Below are positions 1,808 to 31,880 of a DNA stretch of 32,000 nt, in pieces. A program made the translations under genes and the position numbers. The DNA is from Erysipelotrichaceae bacterium (lineage in GTDB: Bacteria > Bacillota_I > Bacilli_A > Erysipelotrichales > Erysipelotrichaceae): contig JAUVVC010000006.1 of NCBI GenBank assembly GCA_030604855.1, positions 67,672-99,671 of the forward strand, in the 5' to 3' direction. Within the stretch, counting starts at the first letter, position 1, and every line of letters starts with the position of its first letter. The notes below the pieces were generated by a model. The model was not told where the DNA came from. It did not search any database and saw nothing but the letters and a program-made list of their open reading frames with translations.

Positions 1808-3310
1808 ATGAAATTCAACTTTAGAGTATCACCGAACTATCGCACACCCTTATCGACACAACGTGTTATGTGGGAAGTCACTGCGGCGATCAGTGTGGTC
1901 TTGGCCTTTGCAGTATTCTATTACTTTACGGAATTGGGTACGGATTATGGCATTCATGCCGTATTGATGATCCTTACGTCTTTAGCGGTTGCGATTGGAA
2001 CCGAAGTGCTCTGGGCTTTGTTCTATAAGAAGAACATCCTCAAACATTTGAATACATCGTTCCCTTGGGTCATTGCTTTGATCTTCGTTGGTACGATGAG
2101 CATCAATCGTCCTTTATATGTTTCTGCTGTGAGTGTGTTTGCCGGGGTTTTCTTTGGTAAACTCGTCTTCGGTGGTTTTGGATATAACATCTTCAACCCA
2201 GCGGGTGTTGGTCGTGCAGTGGCGGCATTGTCCTTCAGTGGTTTTGTGACCAATAAGTTTGCGGATGTGGTTACAGGTGCGACAGCAAACCAAGTCATGC
2301 AAGGCTTGGGCTGGGTCATCACAAAGCCTGAAGCCGTTGATGCGTTCTTAAATCAATTTGGTGGTTTAAGTGGACTAGCGATTGGTTTCTATCCTGCAAG
2401 TTTGGGTGAGACCAGTACGATTCTCTTGTTGTTGGTTGGTATTTATCTCTCTGTCCGTAAAATCATCGATTGGAAGGTTCCATTGACCTTCATCGGTTCG
2501 ATTTTCATCTTTACATATGCCATTGCATTATTCAAAGGCATGGGTGTCTGGTATCCTTTGTTCCATATCGTCAGTGGTGGTGCGATGTATGCGGCGGTCT
2601 TCATGATCACCGATCCCGTCACGACACCGACGTCGAGCATCGGACGGATCTTGTTTGCGATGGGGGTTGCCATCTTCGTGGTCATCATCCGTATCAAAGC
2701 TAATCTTCCTGAAGGTGTTGTTTATGGAATTCTATTCATGAATATGTTGTCTCCTTTATTGGATCAAATCACGGATGGTTGGGTCTTTAAGGAAATGAAG
2801 AAATTCTATATTCAAATCGGTACCTTGTTTGTGGCTGGCTTGGCGGTGATCTTATTGGTCGCAAGTCAAATCTCCTACAATGAACCGGTTGTCGAAGTTG
2901 AACCTGTCGTTGTCATCAACTTGAAGGGTGAACCGGTTGTGGTATTGGCAGAAGCAGTATCGCCAACGGCTCTCGTTGTTTCTGAAACGGCTGAAGGTGA
3001 TGTTACGACTTTTGTTGTAAACATCAATGGTTATGCGTTCCAAAGCGATCACGATGATGATCCTCAACCGAATACATTGGAGATCAAGGTCAATACTGCG
3101 ACGCAAACGGTTGAAAGTGTCAGCTATGTGACTTTCTCAGATTCTCCGAATATCGGGGATAAAACGAATTCAGATGTCTTCTTGTCTCAATTTGTTGGCT
3201 TATCCATTGTGGATGAAGCCGCAAGTGTGGATGTCGTATCTGGAGCCACCATTACATCTCAGTCGGTTGTTCGTGCTGTTCGTGCCGCAATTGCAGCGGC
3301 TTTGGATTAG
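1808..3310 (+). CDS. rnfD: Rnf subunit D fused to a C-terminal FMN-binding (RnfG/NqrC-like) domain
   Basis: The 500 aa polytopic membrane protein carries the RnfD flavinylation motif ADVVTGATANQ. After the last TM (about aa 345) there is a roughly 150 aa extension ending in VDVVSGATITSQSVVRAVRAAIAAAL, a second Dxx(S/T)GAT FMN_bind-type motif. Confidence 0.9.
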   Translation: MKFNFRVSPNYRTPLSTQRVMWEVTAAISVVLAFAVFYYFTELGTDYGIHAVLMILTSLAVAIGTEVLWALFYKKNILKHLNTSFPWVIALIFVGTMSINRPLYVSAVSVFAGVFFGKLVFGGFGYNIFNPAGVGRAVAALSFSGFVTNKFADVVTGATANQVMQGLGWVITKPEAVDAFLNQFGGLSGLAIGFYPASLGETSTILLLLVGIYLSVRKIIDWKVPLTFIGSIFIFTYAIALFKGMGVWYPLFHIVSGGAMYAAVFMITDPVTTPTSSIGRILFAMGVAIFVVIIRIKANLPEGVVYGILFMNMLSPLLDQITDGWVFKEMKKFYIQIGTLFVAGLAVILLVASQISYNEPVVEVEPVVVINLKGEPVVVLAEAVSPTALVVSETAEGDVTTFVVNINGYAFQSDHDDDPQPNTLEIKVNTATQTVESVSYVTFSDSPNIGDKTNSDVFLSQFVGLSIVDEAASVDVVSGATITSQSVVRAVRAAIAAALD

Positions 3311-5053: not shown

Positions 5054-5248
5054 ATGGAAGCCGTCATTTATATCGCGGCCTTAGGTGGGTTCTATGCTTT
5101 GGTTTATTATTTGAACCACAAGACGCCGAAACCTGAGGGATGTGAATACATCGATGCGGCCTGTAATTCGTGCAGTGTAGGTATTTGCAGCAATCATCCA
5201 TCGCAAAATATCATCAAGGAGGATATGATTCATGTTGAGCGCAGTTAG
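5054..5248 (+). CDS. Small Cys-rich single-pass membrane protein (FeoB-associated-Cys-rich-like architecture)
   Basis: The ATG is 1 nt after the rnfA stop, suggesting translational coupling. One TM (AVIYIAALGGFYALVYYL) is followed by a basic linker and a CX6CX2CX4C cluster (GCEYIDAACNSCSVGICSNH). The 3' end overlaps rnfB by 17 nt. Confidence 0.5.
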   Translation: MEAVIYIAALGGFYALVYYLNHKTPKPEGCEYIDAACNSCSVGICSNHPSQNIIKEDMIHVERS

Positions 5249-5540
5249 TATGATGTTGGTCCTTGGGGCGGCTTTGGGTTTGCTCTTGGCGATTGCAGGT
5301 AAAGTCTTCTATGTGGAAATCGATACGCGTGTTGAACAGATCACGAACATGTTGCCAGGATACAACTGTGGCGCATGTGGTTATCCGGGATGCGCAGGTT
5401 TAGCCGATGCGTTGGTCAGTGGAGAGGCAAAGAGTCCAACTCAATGCAAACCTTCGACTGAGGCCCATCGTTCTCGGATCACCGCTTTCATGGAAACCGG
5501 TGTGGATCCACAAGCTCCAAAAGAGTCTGTACAAGCTTAA
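5232..5540 (+). CDS. rnfB: Rnf subunit B, minimal form (N-terminal TM plus Fe-S domain only)
   Basis: AAGGAGG lies 8 nt upstream. It has an N-terminal TM helix and then LPGYNCGACGYPGCAGLADALVSGEAKSPTQCKP, the RnfB N-terminal Cys motif. The protein ends at 102 aa with no CxxCxxCxxxCP ferredoxin repeats. Confidence 0.8.
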   Translation: MLSAVSMMLVLGAALGLLLAIAGKVFYVEIDTRVEQITNMLPGYNCGACGYPGCAGLADALVSGEAKSPTQCKPSTEAHRSRITAFMETGVDPQAPKESVQA

Positions 5541-5546
5541 TTTCTT

Positions 5547-5572
5547 AAAGATCGTGAAAGCGATCTTTTTTT
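5547..5572 (+). terminator. Rho-independent terminator after rnfB
   Basis: A 7-bp stem AAGATCG/CGATCTT with loop TGAAAG is followed by T7. Confidence 0.7.
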
Positions 5573-5621: not shown

Positions 5622-5987
5622 ATGAAGGGTGTGATTCAGGCTTATGCATTGTTGGTTGTGTGTCTGGGTGTATCGCTCGGCATGATGATTGCGGTTCAAT
5701 ATGATGTCCTATTTTATAAGCATCAGTTCATTCTGAAACAAAGCATGCAAGAAAGTATGCTGGAAAGTTTGGATCTGCCTTATCAGGAACGCGATCTGTA
5801 TACGTTCAATCGTTTAATTGAACTCTTGAGCATGCGTATGGGTTCAAATCGAAGCGTAAATGTCAGTTTGATGGGATTCAATGCACAACCCTTGGCACTC
5901 AGAGTCAAATTAAGTGTATCCGATGAGAATCACATCATCCCTTATTCCATTCATCTCGATAAAACCATGATAGAGGTATCCCCATGA
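5622..5987 (+). CDS. Pilin-like / membrane-anchored protein of unknown function; first gene of the Tad-like locus
   Basis: GTGAGG RBS. The N-terminus MKGVIQAYALLVVCLGVSLGMMIA resembles the N-termini of the two pilin-like ORFs at 9127 and 9270. The stop overlaps the next start (ATGA at 5984). Confidence 0.5.
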   Translation: MKGVIQAYALLVVCLGVSLGMMIAVQYDVLFYKHQFILKQSMQESMLESLDLPYQERDLYTFNRLIELLSMRMGSNRSVNVSLMGFNAQPLALRVKLSVSDENHIIPYSIHLDKTMIEVSP

Positions 5988-6685
5988 AACAGAAGTATTC
6001 TTTATTGCATTTCGGTGTCGCTTTAGGTTTGTGTTTACTCTTTATGGGTGGAAGCTTGTTGTACATTCACAATCAACTTGAGCTGGTGGAAGTCTATGTC
6101 GCAAGAGAAAACTTACCGGCACGGACGCACATCAGTGAGAACAGTCTATCTAAAATCAAAGTTCCCAAAGCGTATCTCAGTGAAGATGCGATTACGGATA
6201 AAGCTCAAATGTTGGGAAAATACGTCAAAATCAATGCATCGATTCCAAAGGGAAGTCTTGTGTACACTTCAACGATTGAAGCTTTGGATGAAAGCATCGA
6301 TCAACCCAGTCTTTTATTGAAAAACAATCAGGCAGTCTATGCGATTGATGTCAGTTTGACCAGTACATCTGGAAATACATTGCAGATTGGATCGAAAGTA
6401 GATATTTACGGAACTTTGAAAGTCGGACGTGAGACAAAGGTCGATTTACTTTTCAAACAGGTTCGAGTGATCAGTGTCAAAGATAAGAATGGTAATGAGG
6501 TCGATCGTAAAAGCAATCAGATGCCCAAGCTATTATTGGTTGCATTTGATCAAACTGAAATCCCGTTGATTACCAAATTGATCGCAATGGGCGAGATCAC
6601 CATCACACCAACTGCGGAGTTCTTGAGTGAGGATGAGTGTGTCCTCAATGAACATTCACTTCTATTGGAAATCCTCTATGCTTGA
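5984..6685 (+). CDS. cpaB: CpaB/RcpC-like Flp pilus assembly protein (SAF domain)
   Basis: An N-terminal TM anchor is followed by a SAF-like segment (VEVYVARENLPARTHISENSLSKIKVPKAYL...IPKGSLV) and a beta-rich C-terminal half, as in CpaB. It sits directly upstream of the TadA-like ATPase. Confidence 0.65.
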   Translation: MKQKYSLLHFGVALGLCLLFMGGSLLYIHNQLELVEVYVARENLPARTHISENSLSKIKVPKAYLSEDAITDKAQMLGKYVKINASIPKGSLVYTSTIEALDESIDQPSLLLKNNQAVYAIDVSLTSTSGNTLQIGSKVDIYGTLKVGRETKVDLLFKQVRVISVKDKNGNEVDRKSNQMPKLLLVAFDQTEIPLITKLIAMGEITITPTAEFLSEDECVLNEHSLLLEILYA

Positions 6686-7694
6686 TAACTTTGATTTTGG
6701 AGTGATTCAGTCGTATGTCGATGATCCAATGGTTACGGATATCAATTACAATGGTCGCCAATGTTGGATCGATCATCTTCGTAAAGGACGATATCCTTTA
6801 GCACCTTTTGATGCCCATGAAGCGATGCAGATACTGGTTTATAAAATTGCGAACTATGTGAATCTACCTTTCAATGCGACCAGTCCTGTCTTGGAAGCAG
6901 AAACTGAAAGTCTGCGTATCAGTCTATTGCACCCCAGTGTTTCGAAAGGGGGATTAAGCCTCTCTTTACGCAAAACACCTGCGCTCTGTCGTTTACACGA
7001 TGCAGAGACGGGGATTAAGGCTTATGCGCCGGAATGGGTGATCAGTTTATTGCAGGAAGCTGTCAGGCATCGTAAGAACATCTTAGTAAGTGGGCTTCCG
7101 GGTTCAGGTAAAACCGAATTTGTAAAGTTTCTGATGGAGAGCATTCCAGCTCAAGAACGCGTGATTACGATTGAGGATAGTCTTGAACTTCGTTATGGTG
7201 ATATCCATCCGACAAAAGATCACGTGATGCTTAAGGTTCAGGAGCGCTTTGGCTATGAGCAAGCCATCAAAACAAGTCTGCGCCAAAGACCGGATTGGAT
7301 CTGTGTCTCTGAGGTCAGGGGTGCCGAAATCATGTATCTTCTGCAGAGTATTTCAACGGGAACCAGTTTGATCAGTACAATTCATGCGGAGAGCGCAATA
7401 GCGATACCAGCGCGGATGTTGATGCTCATGCCAGGGTTTGATCTGAACAATCAAAGTCTGCTTACCATGATTCATGATTGCATCGACTTTGGCATTCATT
7501 TGGAGGTCAATCATGATGGACAGAAAGTCGTACGATCGATTCGAGAGTTGGTCCAATTTAAAATCAATGAGAACTATGAACAAGAAAAGAAAACAATCTA
7601 TCAAAGCGATGATAAAAACAAAGCCGTTCGCTACCAAAGCCTATTTGCAAGTAAAAAAGCTAAAACTCAAAGAACTCCTTTGGATCTTCAGTGA
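6678..7694 (+). CDS. tadA: TadA/CpaF-family type IV filament secretion ATPase
   Basis: ATG at 6678 (MLDNFDFGVIQSYVDDPMVTDINYNG) overlaps the cpaB-like stop. Motifs present: Walker A GLPGSGKT, Asp box ITIEDSLEL, Walker B PDWICVSEVRGAE, His box STIHAES. At 338 aa it is short and has no N-terminal accessory domain. Confidence 0.85.
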   Translation: MLDNFDFGVIQSYVDDPMVTDINYNGRQCWIDHLRKGRYPLAPFDAHEAMQILVYKIANYVNLPFNATSPVLEAETESLRISLLHPSVSKGGLSLSLRKTPALCRLHDAETGIKAYAPEWVISLLQEAVRHRKNILVSGLPGSGKTEFVKFLMESIPAQERVITIEDSLELRYGDIHPTKDHVMLKVQERFGYEQAIKTSLRQRPDWICVSEVRGAEIMYLLQSISTGTSLISTIHAESAIAIPARMLMLMPGFDLNNQSLLTMIHDCIDFGIHLEVNHDGQKVVRSIRELVQFKINENYEQEKKTIYQSDDKNKAVRYQSLFASKKAKTQRTPLDLQ

Positions 7695-8388
7695 GTTGGC
7701 TATAACCATTTGGATCGCCACACGCTTTGGACTCCCACGACAATCTATCTTTATTCTTTTCATCACGACGATCGCACTGACCCCTCTGTTCTTTCGTTAT
7801 CAATTGCAATGGATCAAACAAGAACAAGCCTTTTTCAATCTGACGGATTTTCTCCAACAATTCATTGCGAGCTTTAAGTCACACCCAAAAATATACGCTG
7901 CGCTATTGGAATGTGAGGACATCACACAACATCAATTACACAAGGATGTGAGGTTTTGGATCGAGGGACTCGAGAAGGGTGGATACCCTCAGGAACACGC
8001 CAAAGCGTTCATGGCGAAATATGGTCATTTCACTATTGGGAATATGGTGCATCTCATGTTGGCGGTGGAGAATTATGGAAGTTTCCAGTATGCCGAAGGA
8101 TTTGAAATCATTCAAGATGACATTGAGGAATGGATTGAAGATACCTATGCCTTCAAACAGGAACAAGTCCAGACGCAACGGAAGATTCAGATACTCTCCT
8201 TATTTTCAATGGGCATCGCTTACATGAGCCACAACATGCTTTTCAAATCGGATCTGGTCAGTGAACTTGGTTTCTACCATACCAGTCTGATGTTGTTCTT
8301 CGGCTTGATTCTGCTCACACTCTTCTTTGCGCAAAAGATGATCGCGGTGCCTTGGATTGAGAAGAAGGAGTTGATATGGAGCGCTTGA
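7609..8388 (+). CDS. tadB: TadB-like pilus platform membrane protein (T2SS-F domain); start uncertain
   Basis: The reading frame is open from 7474. It is a TM-rich protein with a central soluble helical domain, which fits the T2SSF/TadB layout. Candidate starts are 7513 (GGAGG 6 nt upstream), 7567, 7576 and 7609, and all of them overlap the tadA 3' end. Confidence 0.6.
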   Translation: MIKTKPFATKAYLQVKKLKLKELLWIFSELAITIWIATRFGLPRQSIFILFITTIALTPLFFRYQLQWIKQEQAFFNLTDFLQQFIASFKSHPKIYAALLECEDITQHQLHKDVRFWIEGLEKGGYPQEHAKAFMAKYGHFTIGNMVHLMLAVENYGSFQYAEGFEIIQDDIEEWIEDTYAFKQEQVQTQRKIQILSLFSMGIAYMSHNMLFKSDLVSELGFYHTSLMLFFGLILLTLFFAQKMIAVPWIEKKELIWSA

Positions 8389-9122
8389 TCTTTAGTTTGA
8401 TCATCTTAGTCTTATGGAGATTGGGTGATCCTTGGTTGAATGACCACTTGATGAACATACGCGAGAAAGACTGTGTTCGACTGGAAAATGTTCTTAAAAT
8501 CAAGTTGGACCATACCTGGATGCTGGAGCGTATCCAACGTTTGAAACATCTTCGATATGCGATTCTATTGGTCACATTCGATATTCGTTTTGCTTATCTG
8601 GTTCTCTTTGTTTGGATCTTTGTTTATAAATCACCGTATCTTCGTTTGAAACATCAAGCGCGCAAACACATTCAATTGGTGCGTTACCAATTTCCTATCT
8701 ATCTTCGTCAGCTCCAGATCCTCCTACAAAACAACACCGTTGTAAATGCGGTGGAGCAGTCGTTGGCGTATGTGCCCGAAGTGCTTAAAGACGATATCCA
8801 TGTCTTTCATTCGGCACTCTTGGAAGATTCACGTTCACTCTCCACCTACATCACACAAATGCAGGCTTACCAACTTCCTGAGATCACCCGTGCTTTCAAA
8901 TGGCTCTATCGTTACCAAAGCATTGGTTCTCAGGATGCTTATCGTCAGTTTAATCGTATGATTCTATCGACATCGAAATGGTTGCGTCAAGCACGCATCC
9001 ATCAAAAACAGAATGCCGTTGGAATATATCAATGGATGGGAATGTTGCCTCTGGTGGGTGTCACCGTGGTCTTCATTTCAGCCATGTTAAGTGTCGCACT
9101 GACACTCTTTGAAAGGGGGTGA
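8376..9122 (+). CDS. tadC: TadC-like pilus platform membrane protein (T2SS-F domain)
   Basis: AAGGAG lies 7 nt upstream and the start overlaps the tadB-like gene by 13 nt. It has N- and C-terminal TM segments flanking a helical soluble domain, and it forms the second member of a TadB/TadC-type pair. Confidence 0.6.
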   Translation: MERLIFSLIILVLWRLGDPWLNDHLMNIREKDCVRLENVLKIKLDHTWMLERIQRLKHLRYAILLVTFDIRFAYLVLFVWIFVYKSPYLRLKHQARKHIQLVRYQFPIYLRQLQILLQNNTVVNAVEQSLAYVPEVLKDDIHVFHSALLEDSRSLSTYITQMQAYQLPEITRAFKWLYRYQSIGSQDAYRQFNRMILSTSKWLRQARIHQKQNAVGIYQWMGMLPLVGVTVVFISAMLSVALTLFERG

Positions 9123-9126
9123 ACAC

Positions 9127-9270
9127 ATGAAGGCGTTTTTTGAAGAATATGGTTTGGTTTTGGTCGTAACCGTCATCGCAACAGGCATGATTACGTTCTC
9201 GGAGACATTTAAGACAACGATGCAAACAACTCTCGAAACTCAATGGTCGGAAATGACGACAGGTAGCTGA
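9127..9270 (+). CDS. flp: Flp-type (type IVb/c) pilin, 47 aa; not in the supplied ORF track
   Basis: AGGGGG RBS at about 9113-9118. Translation by hand gives MKAFFEEYGLVLVVTVIATGMITFSETFKTTMQTTLETQWSEMTTGS. The EEYGL(V/I/L) motif plus hydrophobic helix is the Flp signature (xEYGLI..). The position after tadC matches canonical tad loci. Confidence 0.6.
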   Translation: MKAFFEEYGLVLVVTVIATGMITFSETFKTTMQTTLETQWSEMTTGS

Positions 9271-9608
9271 TGAAAGGTGCATTTGAAACGGCTTTAGTGA
9301 TGTTGTTTGGCATGATGTTCATGGTTATGGGAATGGATTACATGAAGGTTGTTATGATGAATAATCAGGCACGCTTGTTGGCTGAAAGCAGTTTGGCAAT
9401 CTTGGAAAACCAAAATCGTTACGACGCAGCGGTTCAAGTCTTGATCGATCATACCAAAGACACTTGTACATCCTGCATCTTGTTGATTGAACCGCATCTC
9501 GATCATCCTGGACGTTACCGTGTCATCGTAAACTATCCGATCGAATTGAAGCATATCCGTTATCACACCATGGCGAAACTCGAGTTATTAAGCCGTCCCT
9601 TAAGTTAG
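9270..9608 (+). CDS. tadE: TadE-like pseudopilin / minor pilin
   Basis: The start overlaps the flp stop (TGATG). The N-terminus MKGAFETALVMLFGMMFMVMG resembles the TadE-family G-x-x-x-E-x-A-L hydrophobic N-terminus. Confidence 0.5.
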   Translation: MKGAFETALVMLFGMMFMVMGMDYMKVVMMNNQARLLAESSLAILENQNRYDAAVQVLIDHTKDTCTSCILLIEPHLDHPGRYRVIVNYPIELKHIRYHTMAKLELLSRPLS

Positions 9609-9630
9609 TGCAGGAATCTGCACTTTCTTT
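9607..9630 (+). terminator. Rho-independent terminator after the Tad-like locus
   Basis: A 7-bp stem AGTGCAG/CTGCACT with loop GAAT is followed by TTCTTT. It overlaps the stop codon. Confidence 0.6.
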
Positions 9631-9658: not shown

Positions 9659-10420
9659 ATGTTAATCACCATTGATGTCGGCAATTCCAATATTGTCTGT
9701 GTAGTCTATTCCAAACTGAAAGAACGTCTTTACGATAAACGTTTTGAAACCATCAAAGAGAACATTGAGGAAGCGTATCCAACGTTTGTCAAAGAAGAGT
9801 TGTTGTTTTTAAAGGAGCGATTTGCATGTGAGGCGGTCATGTTGAGCAATGTTGTTCCCGCAATCGATCAAGTCTTAGTAAATGCTTTAAAAGAAGGTTT
9901 GGGAATCGATGTTTATCGCTGTGATTTGAGCACCGTACCAGAGTTCAAAGTGCTTTTGGAGGATCCTCGTGAACTGGGGGCGGATTTTATTGCGACCAGC
10001 TATGGTGCGATGGCAAAGTATCCTTTACCGATCATTGTAGCGGATCTCGGATCTGCGACGAAAGTAAGTGCGTTGAACCTAGAGGGTGATTTCGCAGGTG
10101 GAATCATCATGCCGGGTTTGCGAATCGCTCAAGATGCACTGAATCGTTTCATCCCACATCTCCCTCAGATTCCACTTGTCGTACCGAAATCCGTTTTGGG
10201 AAGTGATACGATCACGGCAATGCAAGCAGGTTTGATGTATTCTACGATTGATTCCGTTGAAGGCATTGCACGTAGAATCGAACTCAGTTTCAATGCAAAG
10301 TGTTCAAAAATCCTAACAGGTGGCTTGTCTGTATTGATTCATGAGGATACGGAAGACTTCGTTTATGAACCGTATTTATTGAATGAAGGCTTGTTTGAAA
10401 TCTTCCAACTTTTAAAGTGA
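9659..10420 (+). CDS. coaX: Type III pantothenate kinase
   Basis: The N-terminus MLITIDVGNSN is the CoaX hallmark. The 253 aa length and later ASKHA-fold Gly-rich segments (ADLGSATK, GGIIMPG) also fit. Confidence 0.85.
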   Translation: MLITIDVGNSNIVCVVYSKLKERLYDKRFETIKENIEEAYPTFVKEELLFLKERFACEAVMLSNVVPAIDQVLVNALKEGLGIDVYRCDLSTVPEFKVLLEDPRELGADFIATSYGAMAKYPLPIIVADLGSATKVSALNLEGDFAGGIIMPGLRIAQDALNRFIPHLPQIPLVVPKSVLGSDTITAMQAGLMYSTIDSVEGIARRIELSFNAKCSKILTGGLSVLIHEDTEDFVYEPYLLNEGLFEIFQLLK

Positions 10421-10492: not shown

Positions 10493-10571
10493 GGCGATCG
10501 TGGCGAAGTTGGTTAACGCACCGGATTGTGGTTCCGGCATTTCGCGGGTTCGAGCCCCGTCGGTCGCCCCA
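10493..10571 (+). tRNA. tRNA-His (GTG)
   Basis: Hand-folded cloverleaf. It has the extra G-1 opposite C73, acceptor stem GCGATCG/CGGTCGC, anticodon loop TTGTGGT, T-loop TTCGAGC, and an encoded CCA. Confidence 0.9.
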
Positions 10572-31051: not shown

Positions 31052-31125
31052 GGTTCCTTAGCCAAGTGGTAAGGCAATAGACTGCAACTCTGTGACCGTC
31101 GGTTCAAATCCGACAGGAACCTCCA
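31052..31125 (+). tRNA. tRNA-Cys (GCA)
   Basis: Acceptor GGTTCCT/AGGAACC, anticodon loop CTGCAAC, discriminator U73 (the Cys identity element), CCA encoded. Confidence 0.9.
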
Positions 31126-31127
31126 TT

Positions 31128-31214
31128 GGGGATGTGGCGGAATAGGCAGACGCAACGGACTTAAAATCCGTTGATGGTAACATCGTGTGGGTTCAAGTCC
31201 CACCATCCCCACCA
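31128..31214 (+). tRNA. tRNA-Leu (TAA)
   Basis: Acceptor GGGGATG/CATCCCC, anticodon loop CTTAAAA, a long variable arm, T-arm GTGGG-TTCAAGT-CCCAC, CCA encoded. Confidence 0.9.
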
Positions 31215-31259
31215 TCGTATACTTGTTAAGGAATTGGATTGGTGTCGCATTGAAAAAAT

Positions 31260-31336
31260 GCGCCTATAGCTCAATTGGATAGAGCGTTTGACTACGGATC
31301 AAAAGGTTGTGGGTTCAACTCCTGCTAGGCGCGCCA
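31260..31336 (+). tRNA. tRNA-Arg (ACG)
   Basis: Acceptor GCGCCTA/TAGGCGC, anticodon stem TTTGA/TCAAA, loop CTACGGA, CCA encoded. Confidence 0.9.
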
Positions 31337-31355
31337 TTTTATTTTATTTTTATGT

Positions 31356-31432
31356 CGGGATGTAGCACAGCTTGGTAGTGCACTTGATTTGGGATCAAGG
31401 GGTCGCAGGTTCAAATCCTGTCATCCCGACCA
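31356..31432 (+). tRNA. tRNA-Pro (TGG)
   Basis: Acceptor CGGGATG/CATCCCG, anticodon stem CTTGA/TCAAG, loop TTTGGGA, CCA encoded. Confidence 0.9.
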
Positions 31433-31443
31433 TTATTGTTTAC

Positions 31444-31520
31444 GGCGGGATAGCTCAGTTGGCTAGAGCAATCGGTTCATACCCGGTCGGTCGTGAGTTC
31501 GAGTCTCACTCCCGCTACCA
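31444..31520 (+). tRNA. tRNA-Met elongator (CAT)
   Basis: Acceptor GGCGGGA/TCCCGCT, anticodon loop TTCATAC. The GGTTCATACCC context matches Firmicute elongator tRNA-Met. CCA encoded. Confidence 0.8.
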
Positions 31521-31524
31521 ATCT

Positions 31525-31601
<77 letters not shown>

Positions 31602-31609
31602 ACCCCAAT

Positions 31610-31698
31610 GGAGGAATACCCAAGTGGTTGAAGGGACTGGTCTTGAAAACCAGCAGATGTGCGAGCATGCGTGGGTTCGAATCCCACTTCCTCCGCCA
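31610..31698 (+). tRNA. tRNA-Ser (TGA)
   Basis: Acceptor GGAGGAA/TTCCTCC, anticodon stem CTGGT/ACCAG, loop CTTGAAA, a long variable arm, CCA encoded. Confidence 0.9.
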
Positions 31699-31727
31699 GA
31701 ATTTCCTTCAAAATTAATTTAAGTTAT

Positions 31728-31804
31728 CGCGGGGTAGAGCAGTCTGGTAGCTCGGCGGGCTCATAACCCGGAGGTCGTGGGTGCAAATCCTTCCCCCGCA
31801 CCCA
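31728..31804 (+). tRNA. Initiator-type tRNA-fMet (CAT) with an atypical T-arm
   Basis: It has the C1xA72 mismatch (CGCGGGG...CCCCGCA) and three G-C pairs next to the anticodon loop (GGG-CTCATAA-CCC), both initiator hallmarks. The T-arm, however, reads GTGGG-TGCAAAT-CCTTC. See findings. Confidence 0.7.
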
Positions 31805-31807
31805 TCT

Positions 31808-31880
31808 GGCTCTGTAGCTCAGTAGGTTGAGCATCGGACTGAAAATCCGTGTGTCGCCAGTTCAATTCTGGCCGGAGGCA
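31808..31880 (+). tRNA. tRNA-Phe (GAA); no encoded CCA
   Basis: GGCTCTGTAGCTCAGTAGGTTGAGCATCGGACTGAAAATCCGTGTGTCGCCAGTTCAATTCTGGCCGGAGGCA. The anticodon loop is CTGAAAA. The acceptor stem has one G2:G71 mismatch in my fold. Confidence 0.75.

Follow-up and report, generated by a model that had tools for sequence, protein, structure and literature searches.

A conserved 47-codon gene in an Erysipelotrichaceae Tad-like locus is a candidate for a Flp-type pilin gene without a class III leader

Does every subunit of a Tad pilus have to be made as a prepilin? This question is raised by a very small gene in a stretch of 32,000 nucleotides from an Erysipelotrichaceae bacterium (GenBank assembly GCA_030604855.1, contig JAUVVC010000006.1, positions 67,672 to 99,671 of the forward strand), which is referred to here as the window and is numbered from its first letter. 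To our knowledge, the class III leader and the aspartic prepilin peptidase are treated as universal for type IV, Tad and competence pili, for the pseudopili of type II secretion, and for archaeal filaments. The original prediction for this gene, made from the letters of the window alone, was a 47-amino-acid (47-aa) Flp-type pilin with essentially no leader peptide that may not require class III processing. Our analysis favours, with a probability of roughly one in two, the reading that this open reading frame (ORF) encodes the Flp-type major subunit of a divergent Tad-like (type IVc-like) machine, and that the subunit would be made already mature, with no need for a peptidase. The gene and its translation signal are as follows.

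9127..9270, + strand: putative gene for a 47-aa Flp-like pilin lacking a class III leader; M-K is followed by AFFEEYGL, a hydrophobic helix and an amphipathic tail
9112..9122, + strand: extended Shine-Dalgarno (SD) sequence AAAGGGGGTGA, which ends with the stop codon of the gene at the TadC position

The gene spans 47 codons from an ATG at 9127-9129 to a TGA at 9268-9270, and its product reads MKAFFEEYGLVLVVTVIATGMITFSETFKTTMQTTLETQWSEMTTGS, with the N-terminus MKAFFEEYGLVLVV. It is the sixth of seven tightly packed genes in a unit at 5622-9608 located between rnf genes and coaX. The preceding gene ends with a stop codon at 9120-9122, and the ATG of the following 112-aa gene (9270) overlaps the stop codon of the 47-aa gene (TGATG). 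Within the extended SD, which lies 4 nucleotides before ATG 9127, the AGGGGG core occupies 9114-9119. Both the good ribosome binding site (RBS) and the tight packing described previously are present in the sequence, and Rfam gave no RNA element at this position.

The 47-aa gene is widely distributed within its family. A search of 5.8 billion proteins yielded 151 homologues, almost all of which are 47 to 51 aa long, and those with a named source come from Erysipelotrichaceae or Erysipelothrix. Scanning one genome per species located the gene in at least 93 species. Carriers include Erysipelothrix tonsillarum, E. inopinata, E. urinaevulpis, Copranaerobaculum, Massilicoli, Traorella, and many metagenome-assembled genomes (MAGs). 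The locus comparisons presented here are based on 80 related loci (L001-L080), of which three MAG loci (L001-L003, the first from Erysipelotrichaceae bacterium UBA8511) encode a pilin 100% identical to the window copy. When a profile of distant members was used as the query, mostly the same Erysipelotrichaceae set was returned.

Residues K2 to I22 are almost invariant across the loci, as are F24, F28, W40 and M43. At the same time, four-fold degenerate sites carry all four bases. The codon for V11, for example, is GTA in 30 cases, GTT in 24, GTG in 19 and GTC in seven, and the codons of G9, T15, A18 and G20 vary in the same manner. Near-invariant residues combined with saturated synonymous sites indicate strong purifying selection on the 47-aa frame. 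Identity to the window copy ranges from 59 to 100% for the pilin, compared to 44-94% for the ATPase, 24-86% for the TadC-like protein and 19-93% for the TadB-like protein encoded in the same unit, which makes the 47-aa product the best conserved protein of the unit.

Because the claim concerns a missing leader, the position of the start codon is critical. Upstream of ATG 9127, the frame is closed by a TGA at 9100-9102, nine codons away, leaving room for at most six extra residues. The only other in-frame start is a TTG at 9109 (+6 aa), which has no RBS and lies within the upstream gene. The codon preceding Lys2 could be read in 79 of the 80 related loci, excluding the window, and is ATG in 64, GTG in four, TTG in five, ATA in five and CTG in one. 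The SD element is located at a constant distance from the pilin start codon across these loci. Most of them have a stop that closes the frame 1-14 codons before the start, and in four (L004, L050, L051 and L052) a stop codon immediately precedes the ATG. Public gene calls often extend the ORF upstream to 53-97 aa (P0026, P0035, P0038, P0049, P0139, P0143 and others). We rejected these longer versions as read-through of the SD sequence, whose translation appears as a recurring 'KGGE', and the length of the extension is not conserved. Moreover, in about 19 loci the frame is closed only 1-6 codons upstream of the pilin ATG, which leaves no space for the called extensions. Start-codon turnover, fixed SD spacing, nearby upstream stops and unconserved extensions thus exclude a conserved longer leader, and the upstream start that might have provided a normal leader is found neither in the window nor as a conserved feature of the related loci. 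Comparison of these loci shows the 47-aa gene to be real and, as predicted from its start region, translated from ATG 9127.

Several Erysipelothrix species have an unusual codon at the start position, which is ATA in L061, L064, L067, L071 and L074, and CTG in L080. The codon stands before Lys2, at about position 10001 in most of these six loci, and the SD spacing is the usual one. Either a non-canonical initiation codon is used, or a GTG within the SD gives a four-residue extension (MDAIK...). As the start of the predicted 'MDAIK...' variants, this GTG was rejected because it sits inside the SD sequence.

The relationship of the 47-aa family to Flp pilins was examined by profile-profile alignment. 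Our canonical set consists of three annotated, plasmid-borne Flp proteins, one from Ralstonia (L089) and two from Phyllobacterium (L085 and L086). The Ralstonia megaplasmid tad locus served as the canonical reference, given that the first two annotated plasmid Flp matches were orphan genes. Aligned with hhalign, the 47-aa family matches these proteins with 75% probability (P 2.6e-5), with residues 3-47 placed on residues 15-57. Canonical Flp is cleaved after ...DE[Q/S]G, and Ala3 falls on the residue that directly follows; from there the alignment extends to the C-terminus. M1 and K2 therefore correspond to the canonical -2 and -1 positions, where the Gly is missing. Unrelated 47-aa membrane proteins of pLS20-type plasmids, aligned as a control, gave P values of 0.025-0.28. 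Counted from Ala3, the window protein is 45 aa long, comparable to the 41-45 aa of the mature forms of the three canonical Flp proteins, and its AFFEEYGL motif corresponds to their ATAIEYGL. The Flp motif is defined by Glu-Tyr at +5/+6, a hydrophobic stretch of about 20 aa and a product of about 40-50 aa; the window protein carries E7-Y8-G9-L10 followed by hydrophobic residues up to position 24.

The curated models for these pilins are PF04964 Flp_Fap, with a cut-off of 32.2 bits, and PF16982 Flp1_like, a Firmicutes family with a cut-off of 33.5 bits. Three distant relatives of the window protein match Flp_Fap at 13-16 bits (E 0.014-0.08), below the cut-off, with residues 7-33 on HMM positions 12-36 (HMM, hidden Markov model). 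Two distant relatives match Flp1_like, again below the cut-off (P0128 with 18.6 bits and P0130 with 15.8 bits; E 0.0013). These sub-threshold matches are in the same register as the hhalign alignment. Profile-profile similarity, motif, size and genomic context together suggest that the 47-aa protein belongs to the Flp family.

An AlphaFold2 (AF2) monomer model has a single helix over residues 2-45 with a predicted local distance difference test score (pLDDT) of 92. Foldseek found no match for this single-helix model, and a sequence search of the PDB with the family profile returned nothing meaningful. Matches of the 47-aa protein to DUF1697, FAM210 and CopD in Pfam and NCBIfam were rejected as sub-threshold noise. 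The 'DUF1697 family' label that the JGI (Joint Genome Institute) attaches to many copies stems from such a sub-threshold Pfam match (15.7 bits, compared to a cut-off of 24.4), and a few public copies are labelled 'Flp pilus assembly pilin Flp'.

The absence of a leader is a property of the entire family. A class III signal consists of a charged leader, a Gly at -1 and the sequence G/XXXXEY. In agreement with the original prediction that only two or three residues and no Gly come before the XXXXEY segment, only M-K precede it in the window protein, and the residue at -1 is Lys in 80 of 80 loci and in every distant relative. An HMM search of 1.84 billion representative proteins gave 16 matches, all of which align from the first residue of the profile. 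The motif MK-x-[FS]-x-EE-[Y/M]-G opens the protein-like matches, except that in five entries the gene finder has called extra residues ahead of it. Neither the related loci nor the distant profile matches contain a relative with a longer conserved leader or a Gly at -1. All relatives found keep the ORF and its short N-terminus, among them distant ones from other types of locus. Residue 3 of the family is Ala, Thr, Ser, Ile or Met, and is I, M, T or S in the distant relatives.

The two pilin-like genes on either side of the pilin within the unit share this type of start. These two candidate minor subunits are encoded by the first and last genes of the unit.

5622..5987, + strand: first gene of the unit, 121 aa, candidate minor subunit with the pilin-like N-terminus MKGVIQAYALLVVCLGVSLG and no leader
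9270..9608, + strand: 112-aa gene, candidate minor subunit with the pilin-like N-terminus MKGAFETALVMLFG and no leader

The 121-aa protein starts MKGVIQAYALLVV, and all 28 of its 28 orthologues start with MK[G/S] followed by a hydrophobic helix. The 112-aa protein starts MKGAFETALVMLF, and in Erysipelotrichaceae loci this gene always begins with M-K-x-x-[hydrophobic]-E, with E6 invariant. When orthologues and window copies are counted together, MKG is present in 57 of 61 sequences and MK[G/S] in 29 of 29 for the flanking genes. In both, a hydrophobic stretch that has E at position 6 comes after M-K-G. M-K-G could be a three-residue leader, yet some orthologues of the 112-aa protein (L061, L074 and L080) have Gln or Leu instead of the usual Gly at residue 3. 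Furthermore, the implied Glu5 register of the major subunit is offset by one residue from that of the minor ones. Variability at residue 3 together with this offset does not fit a conserved A24 recognition site. Paralogues and candidate minor subunits in three locus types also start with M[K/R]xxx.

The 112-aa gene had been labelled 'TadE-like', which did not hold up and was rejected: there is no TadE match in Pfam and no NCBIfam match, and hhalign against Ralstonia TadE gives P 0.39. The 121-aa protein has a weak match to DUF5411 (E 0.08) and is weakly similar to the 126-aa product of the first gene of a pLS20-type module (hhalign P 5.7e-4).

As to the peptidase, the original prediction had noted the absence of its gene from the locus, and our searches agree. 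No Peptidase_A24 domain (Pfam) was detected among window ORFs of at least 90 aa, and a motif search recovered no A24 peptidase in about 1.2 Mb of sequence flanking the 80 orthologous loci (within about 10 kb). When 2494 ORFs from the window and all retrieved loci were searched by phmmer with Ralstonia TadV and by a two-motif pattern, the positive control, Ralstonia TadV, was alone recovered. No A24 peptidase occurs near two more distant loci from metagenomic contigs, L082 and L090. TadV and TadZ/CpaE are absent from the seven-gene unit and from the rest of the window, although TadZ was not specifically searched for in the related loci. From the sequences, we infer that the pilin would be independent of a peptidase.

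The remaining genes of the unit and its boundaries are as follows.

5547..5568, + strand: terminator-like hairpin and T-run after the rnf genes (consensus scan), likely the upstream boundary of the seven-gene unit
5984..6685, + strand: CpaB/RcpC-like protein with SAF and RcpC domains
6678..7694, + strand: TadA/CpaF/VirB11-type secretion ATPase of about 338 aa, with a start at GTG 6627 or ATG 6678
7609..8388, + strand: polytopic membrane protein at the TadB position; the ORF opens at 7474 inside the ATPase gene and the start is uncertain
8376..9122, + strand: polytopic membrane protein of 248 aa at the TadC position, with no Pfam or PDB sequence match
9607..9624, + strand: terminator-like hairpin directly after the last gene of the unit (consensus scan)

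For the two hairpins, position alone is suggestive, since the total number of sites found in the scan is not above that expected from shuffled sequence. The longest ORFs of the ATPase (6627-6685) and the TadB-like gene (7474-7694) overlap the preceding genes by 59 and 221 bases, and the true starts are probably ATG 6678 for the ATPase and a site somewhere between 7609 and 7700 for the TadB-like gene. The order cpaB, ATPase, TadB-like, TadC-like, pilin and 112-aa gene is kept in essentially all 80 loci, which are often still flanked by rnf and coaX, indicating vertical inheritance.

Two components expected of a Tad system, a TadA/CpaF-type ATPase and CpaB/RcpC, are encoded in the locus. The CpaB-like protein matches Pfam SAF at 26.2 bits, above the cut-off, and RcpC at 26.4 bits, just below it. 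It also matches TIGR03177 (cpaB) at E 9e-15, below the cut-off, and aligns to Ralstonia CpaB with 95% probability by hhalign. The ATPase matches Pfam T2SSE at 96 bits, and its best relatives of solved structure are CpaF (1e-18), then archaeal GspE2, and then VirB11. The NCBIfam TadA and VirB11 models match it below their equivalog cut-offs, and the 'CpaF/VirB11' ATPases encoded on conjugative plasmids of Firmicutes are closer relatives.

The two putative platform proteins are more divergent. L082 encodes a fused 507-aa protein, one half of which corresponds to the protein at the TadB position (E 5e-11) and the other half to the protein at the TadC position (E 3e-14). The window protein at the TadC position aligns to a 245-aa protein of a pLS20-type plasmid with 96% probability by hhalign, and all 120 of its homologues listed are without Pfam domains. 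Its AF2 model (pLDDT 80) has SpoIIIAB as the only structured Foldseek match (probability 0.94, template modelling (TM) score 0.60, E 0.86). SpoIIIAB has been described as similar to GspF, and this model-based match might be taken as a hint, not as proof. The 'tadC' label that the original prediction gave to this gene fits its position and the fusion in related loci, where TadB and TadC would be joined, but it is weaker than it was put there: no Pfam or NCBIfam model matches the protein.

In the mechanism that we propose, the pilin would be made essentially mature. Its N-terminal amine and Lys2 would hold the N-terminus in the cytoplasm as the helix enters the membrane, with insertion probably occurring post-translationally and via YidC, because the protein is only 47 aa long. 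Methionine aminopeptidase leaves Met in place before Lys, and Met1 would therefore be retained. The ATPase and platform would extract the subunits into a helical fibre, in which Glu6 or Glu7 might stand in for Glu5 as the partner of the N-terminus on an adjacent subunit. Assembly would require no cleavage by a prepilin peptidase, and the MK-initiated proteins encoded on either side of the pilin would serve as minor subunits or prime the fibre.

Several points weigh against this interpretation. When the proposed alignment to Flp_Fap was carried out, the window protein itself matched neither this model, even at E <= 10, nor Flp1_like, and it matches no NCBIfam pilin model. The identification as a Flp pilin thus stands on the EYGL motif, the hydrophobic helix and the hhalign alignment to mature Flp, and lacks the HMM match. 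The platform proteins are without a Pfam T2SSF match, and their likeness to canonical TadB and TadC is marginal (hhalign P 1.2e-3, over the T2SSF region of Ralstonia TadB, and P 0.025 against Ralstonia TadC). It is unusual for the subunit of a surface fibre to be more conserved than the ATPase of its machine, as the 47-aa protein is. Known tad systems can have tadV away from the locus, and an A24 peptidase encoded elsewhere in the genome, such as a ComC serving a comG operon, is possible. Indeed, comG operons have been reported in Erysipelotrichales (PMC12786226). A class III leader ends in [K/R]-G, and both the MKG that opens the two flanking proteins and the invariant Lys2 of the pilin resemble this ending. 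Lastly, the filament, its expression and its mature N-terminus are predictions from the sequence.

We weighed two rival explanations, each of which we consider unlikely. In one, the same pilin carries a minimal leader of two or three residues that is still cut by an unlinked ComC/PilD-like or TadV-like peptidase. The residues lost would be MK or MKA in the major subunit and MKG in each flanking one. The filament would then be an ordinary Tad pilus, and its class III leader would be shorter than any other known. The invariance of Lys2, the [K/R]-G-like context of the flanking proteins, and the occurrence in Erysipelotrichales of comG operons, which need a peptidase, favour this possibility, and a cut after K2 would yield the exact XXXXEY spacing. 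However, the residue at -1 would then be Lys, or else Ala, Thr, Ser, Ile or Met, and would be Gln or Leu in some 112-aa orthologues. A24 enzymes are not known to accept substrates with such residues. The one-residue offset between the major and minor subunits and the lack of an A24 gene near the 80 loci, L082 and L090 also argue against cleavage.

The other explanation, to which we give an equally low weight, is that the 47-aa protein is not part of a filament. It could instead be a single-pass membrane subunit, such as a stator, ring or regulator, of an ATPase/platform complex that functions in secretion or DNA transfer and is related to the VirB11 module of Gram-positive conjugative plasmids. 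This idea draws on the exceptional conservation of the protein, on the lack of a match to a curated pilin model, and on the finding that the closest plasmid relatives of the ATPase and TadC-like proteins reside in pLS20-family operons, which have 47-aa membrane proteins at the same position. Yet those plasmid proteins are not detectably related to the pilin, whereas the window protein aligns end to end with mature Flp, has the same length and carries EYGL. The presence of CpaB, as in Tad pili, and of larger paralogues with the same N-terminus, as is typical of minor pilins, likewise favours a filament. As for a chance ORF or the wrongly called start of a longer gene, the longer public gene calls would support it, but these traverse the SD, vary in length and are blocked by stops, and the pattern of synonymous substitution proves selection on the 47-aa frame, which refutes this explanation with near certainty.

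Other features of the window lie outside the seven-gene unit. The upstream Rnf cluster is atypical (1808-3310, 5054-5248 and 5232-5540). RnfD (500 aa) has an FMN_bind domain at its C-terminus (residues 423-495), and a separate FMN_bind protein, RnfG-like, is encoded as well. The RnfB-like product is only 102 aa long and has no domain other than PF04060 (Fe-S); a 64-aa Cys-rich ORF precedes it. A single tRNA gene is located just downstream of coaX (10494-10568), and nine tRNA genes are clustered at 31052-31880, at the 3' end of the window. Database look-ups of the genes at the ends of the window returned no entry from which the sequence could be extended.

If the peptidase-free reading is correct, the leader cleavage that is held to define the superfamily would be dispensable, and the finding of a conserved Flp-like subunit that starts at its mature N-terminus would call into question whether leader processing is universal. 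Tools that search for pilins rely on the class III motif; rule-based prepilin finders look for [K/R]-G/A followed by a hydrophobic stretch with E/D at +5. Motif searches miss the 47-aa pilin because the leader is absent, and such finders would report loci of this type as lacking a pilin. The locus would also provide a natural test of the purpose of the leader, be it topology, timing of assembly or quality control. With its seven genes, the unit is a simple candidate for expression in a different host without a peptidase. Experiments are feasible because the locus occurs in Erysipelothrix, among whose members is a pathogen of animals and humans. Literature searches gave no account of Flp proteins or other pilins that lack a leader, of Tad pili in Erysipelothrix, or of the pLS20 VirB11 module acting in a pilus.

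The closest known counterparts of the 47-aa protein are the Flp/Fap pilins of Tad (type IVc) pili, such as Flp1 of A. actinomycetemcomitans, PilA of Caulobacter and the three canonical plasmid proteins used here. Shared features include a mature length of about 45 aa, the E-Y-G-L sequence followed by about 16 hydrophobic residues, an amphipathic tail, an all-helix fold, and a gene that adjoins those for a CpaF-type ATPase, CpaB and two platform-like proteins. Unlike the canonical proteins, the window pilin starts with M-K, has no leader of 10-25 aa and no Gly at -1, contains two consecutive Glu residues, scores below the Pfam and NCBIfam thresholds, and is encoded in a locus without tadV and tadZ.

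Within the same order, Bulleidia extructa (Erysipelotrichales) has a canonical tad locus that begins with tadV, includes pilA1 and pilA2, and has been described as horizontally acquired (PMC12786226). Both loci have TadA, pilins without a globular domain, and minor pilins. The window unit differs in its conserved chromosomal neighbourhood (rnf ... coaX) and in lacking a peptidase gene.

Imam et al. (2011) described Gram-positive tad-like loci without a recognisable prepilin, including 'no Flp' tad clades (PMC3244431). The loci reported there (C. kluyveri, C. bolteae and others) have tadV and tadZ, and neither a pilin candidate nor a leaderless pilin was proposed (PMC3244431). They resemble the window locus as divergent tad-like loci of Firmicutes in which motif-based finders see no prepilin. 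The window locus differs in that a conserved Flp-like gene has been identified, and a leaderless pilin, if real, would explain the apparent lack of a pilin in some of these loci (PMC3244431).

A module of pLS20-family and related conjugative plasmids of Firmicutes is present at 7440-11497 of L088 (B. atrophaeus pBatNRS213, pLS20 family) and at 7389-11638 of L087 (a Paraclostridium plasmid). It is collinear with window positions 5622-9608, is in part homologous to them, and encodes an MKG protein of about 125 aa, an ATPase, two membrane proteins of about 250 aa and small membrane proteins. Its ATPase is a 'VirB11-like' match (E 1e-47), and its membrane proteins align by hhalign to the TadB-like protein with 68% and the TadC-like protein with 96% probability. 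The module additionally carries DUF4320 and two tandem 47-aa membrane proteins. The latter (MLDQNADRMYW...) were rejected as pilin homologues given the lack of EYGL and of detectable homology (the control alignments above). In contrast to the window unit, the plasmid module is embedded in a VirD4/VirB4-type conjugation operon and has no CpaB. It may be a Tad-like device within Gram-positive conjugation, and the homology raises the question of a related fibre in this process.

More distant loci with a related ATPase are found in L082 (1267-9370) and L090 (7069-15635). There, the TadB- and TadC-like proteins are fused (507 and 544 aa, respectively), and several small M[K/R]-x-x-x proteins have a hydrophobic helix, including a 137-aa paralogue that starts with (M)KSFLEEYGM. 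Both loci also encode giant surface proteins (1366 and 1165 aa), with matches to Flg_new, Big_2 and fn3 in L082. The L082 locus may be mobile because it carries a resolvase. Tentatively, the Erysipelotrichaceae locus, the L082/L090 type and possibly the pLS20 VirB11 module might represent a clade of Gram-positive type IV filament machines whose subunits have never borne a class III signal peptide and never encounter a prepilin peptidase.

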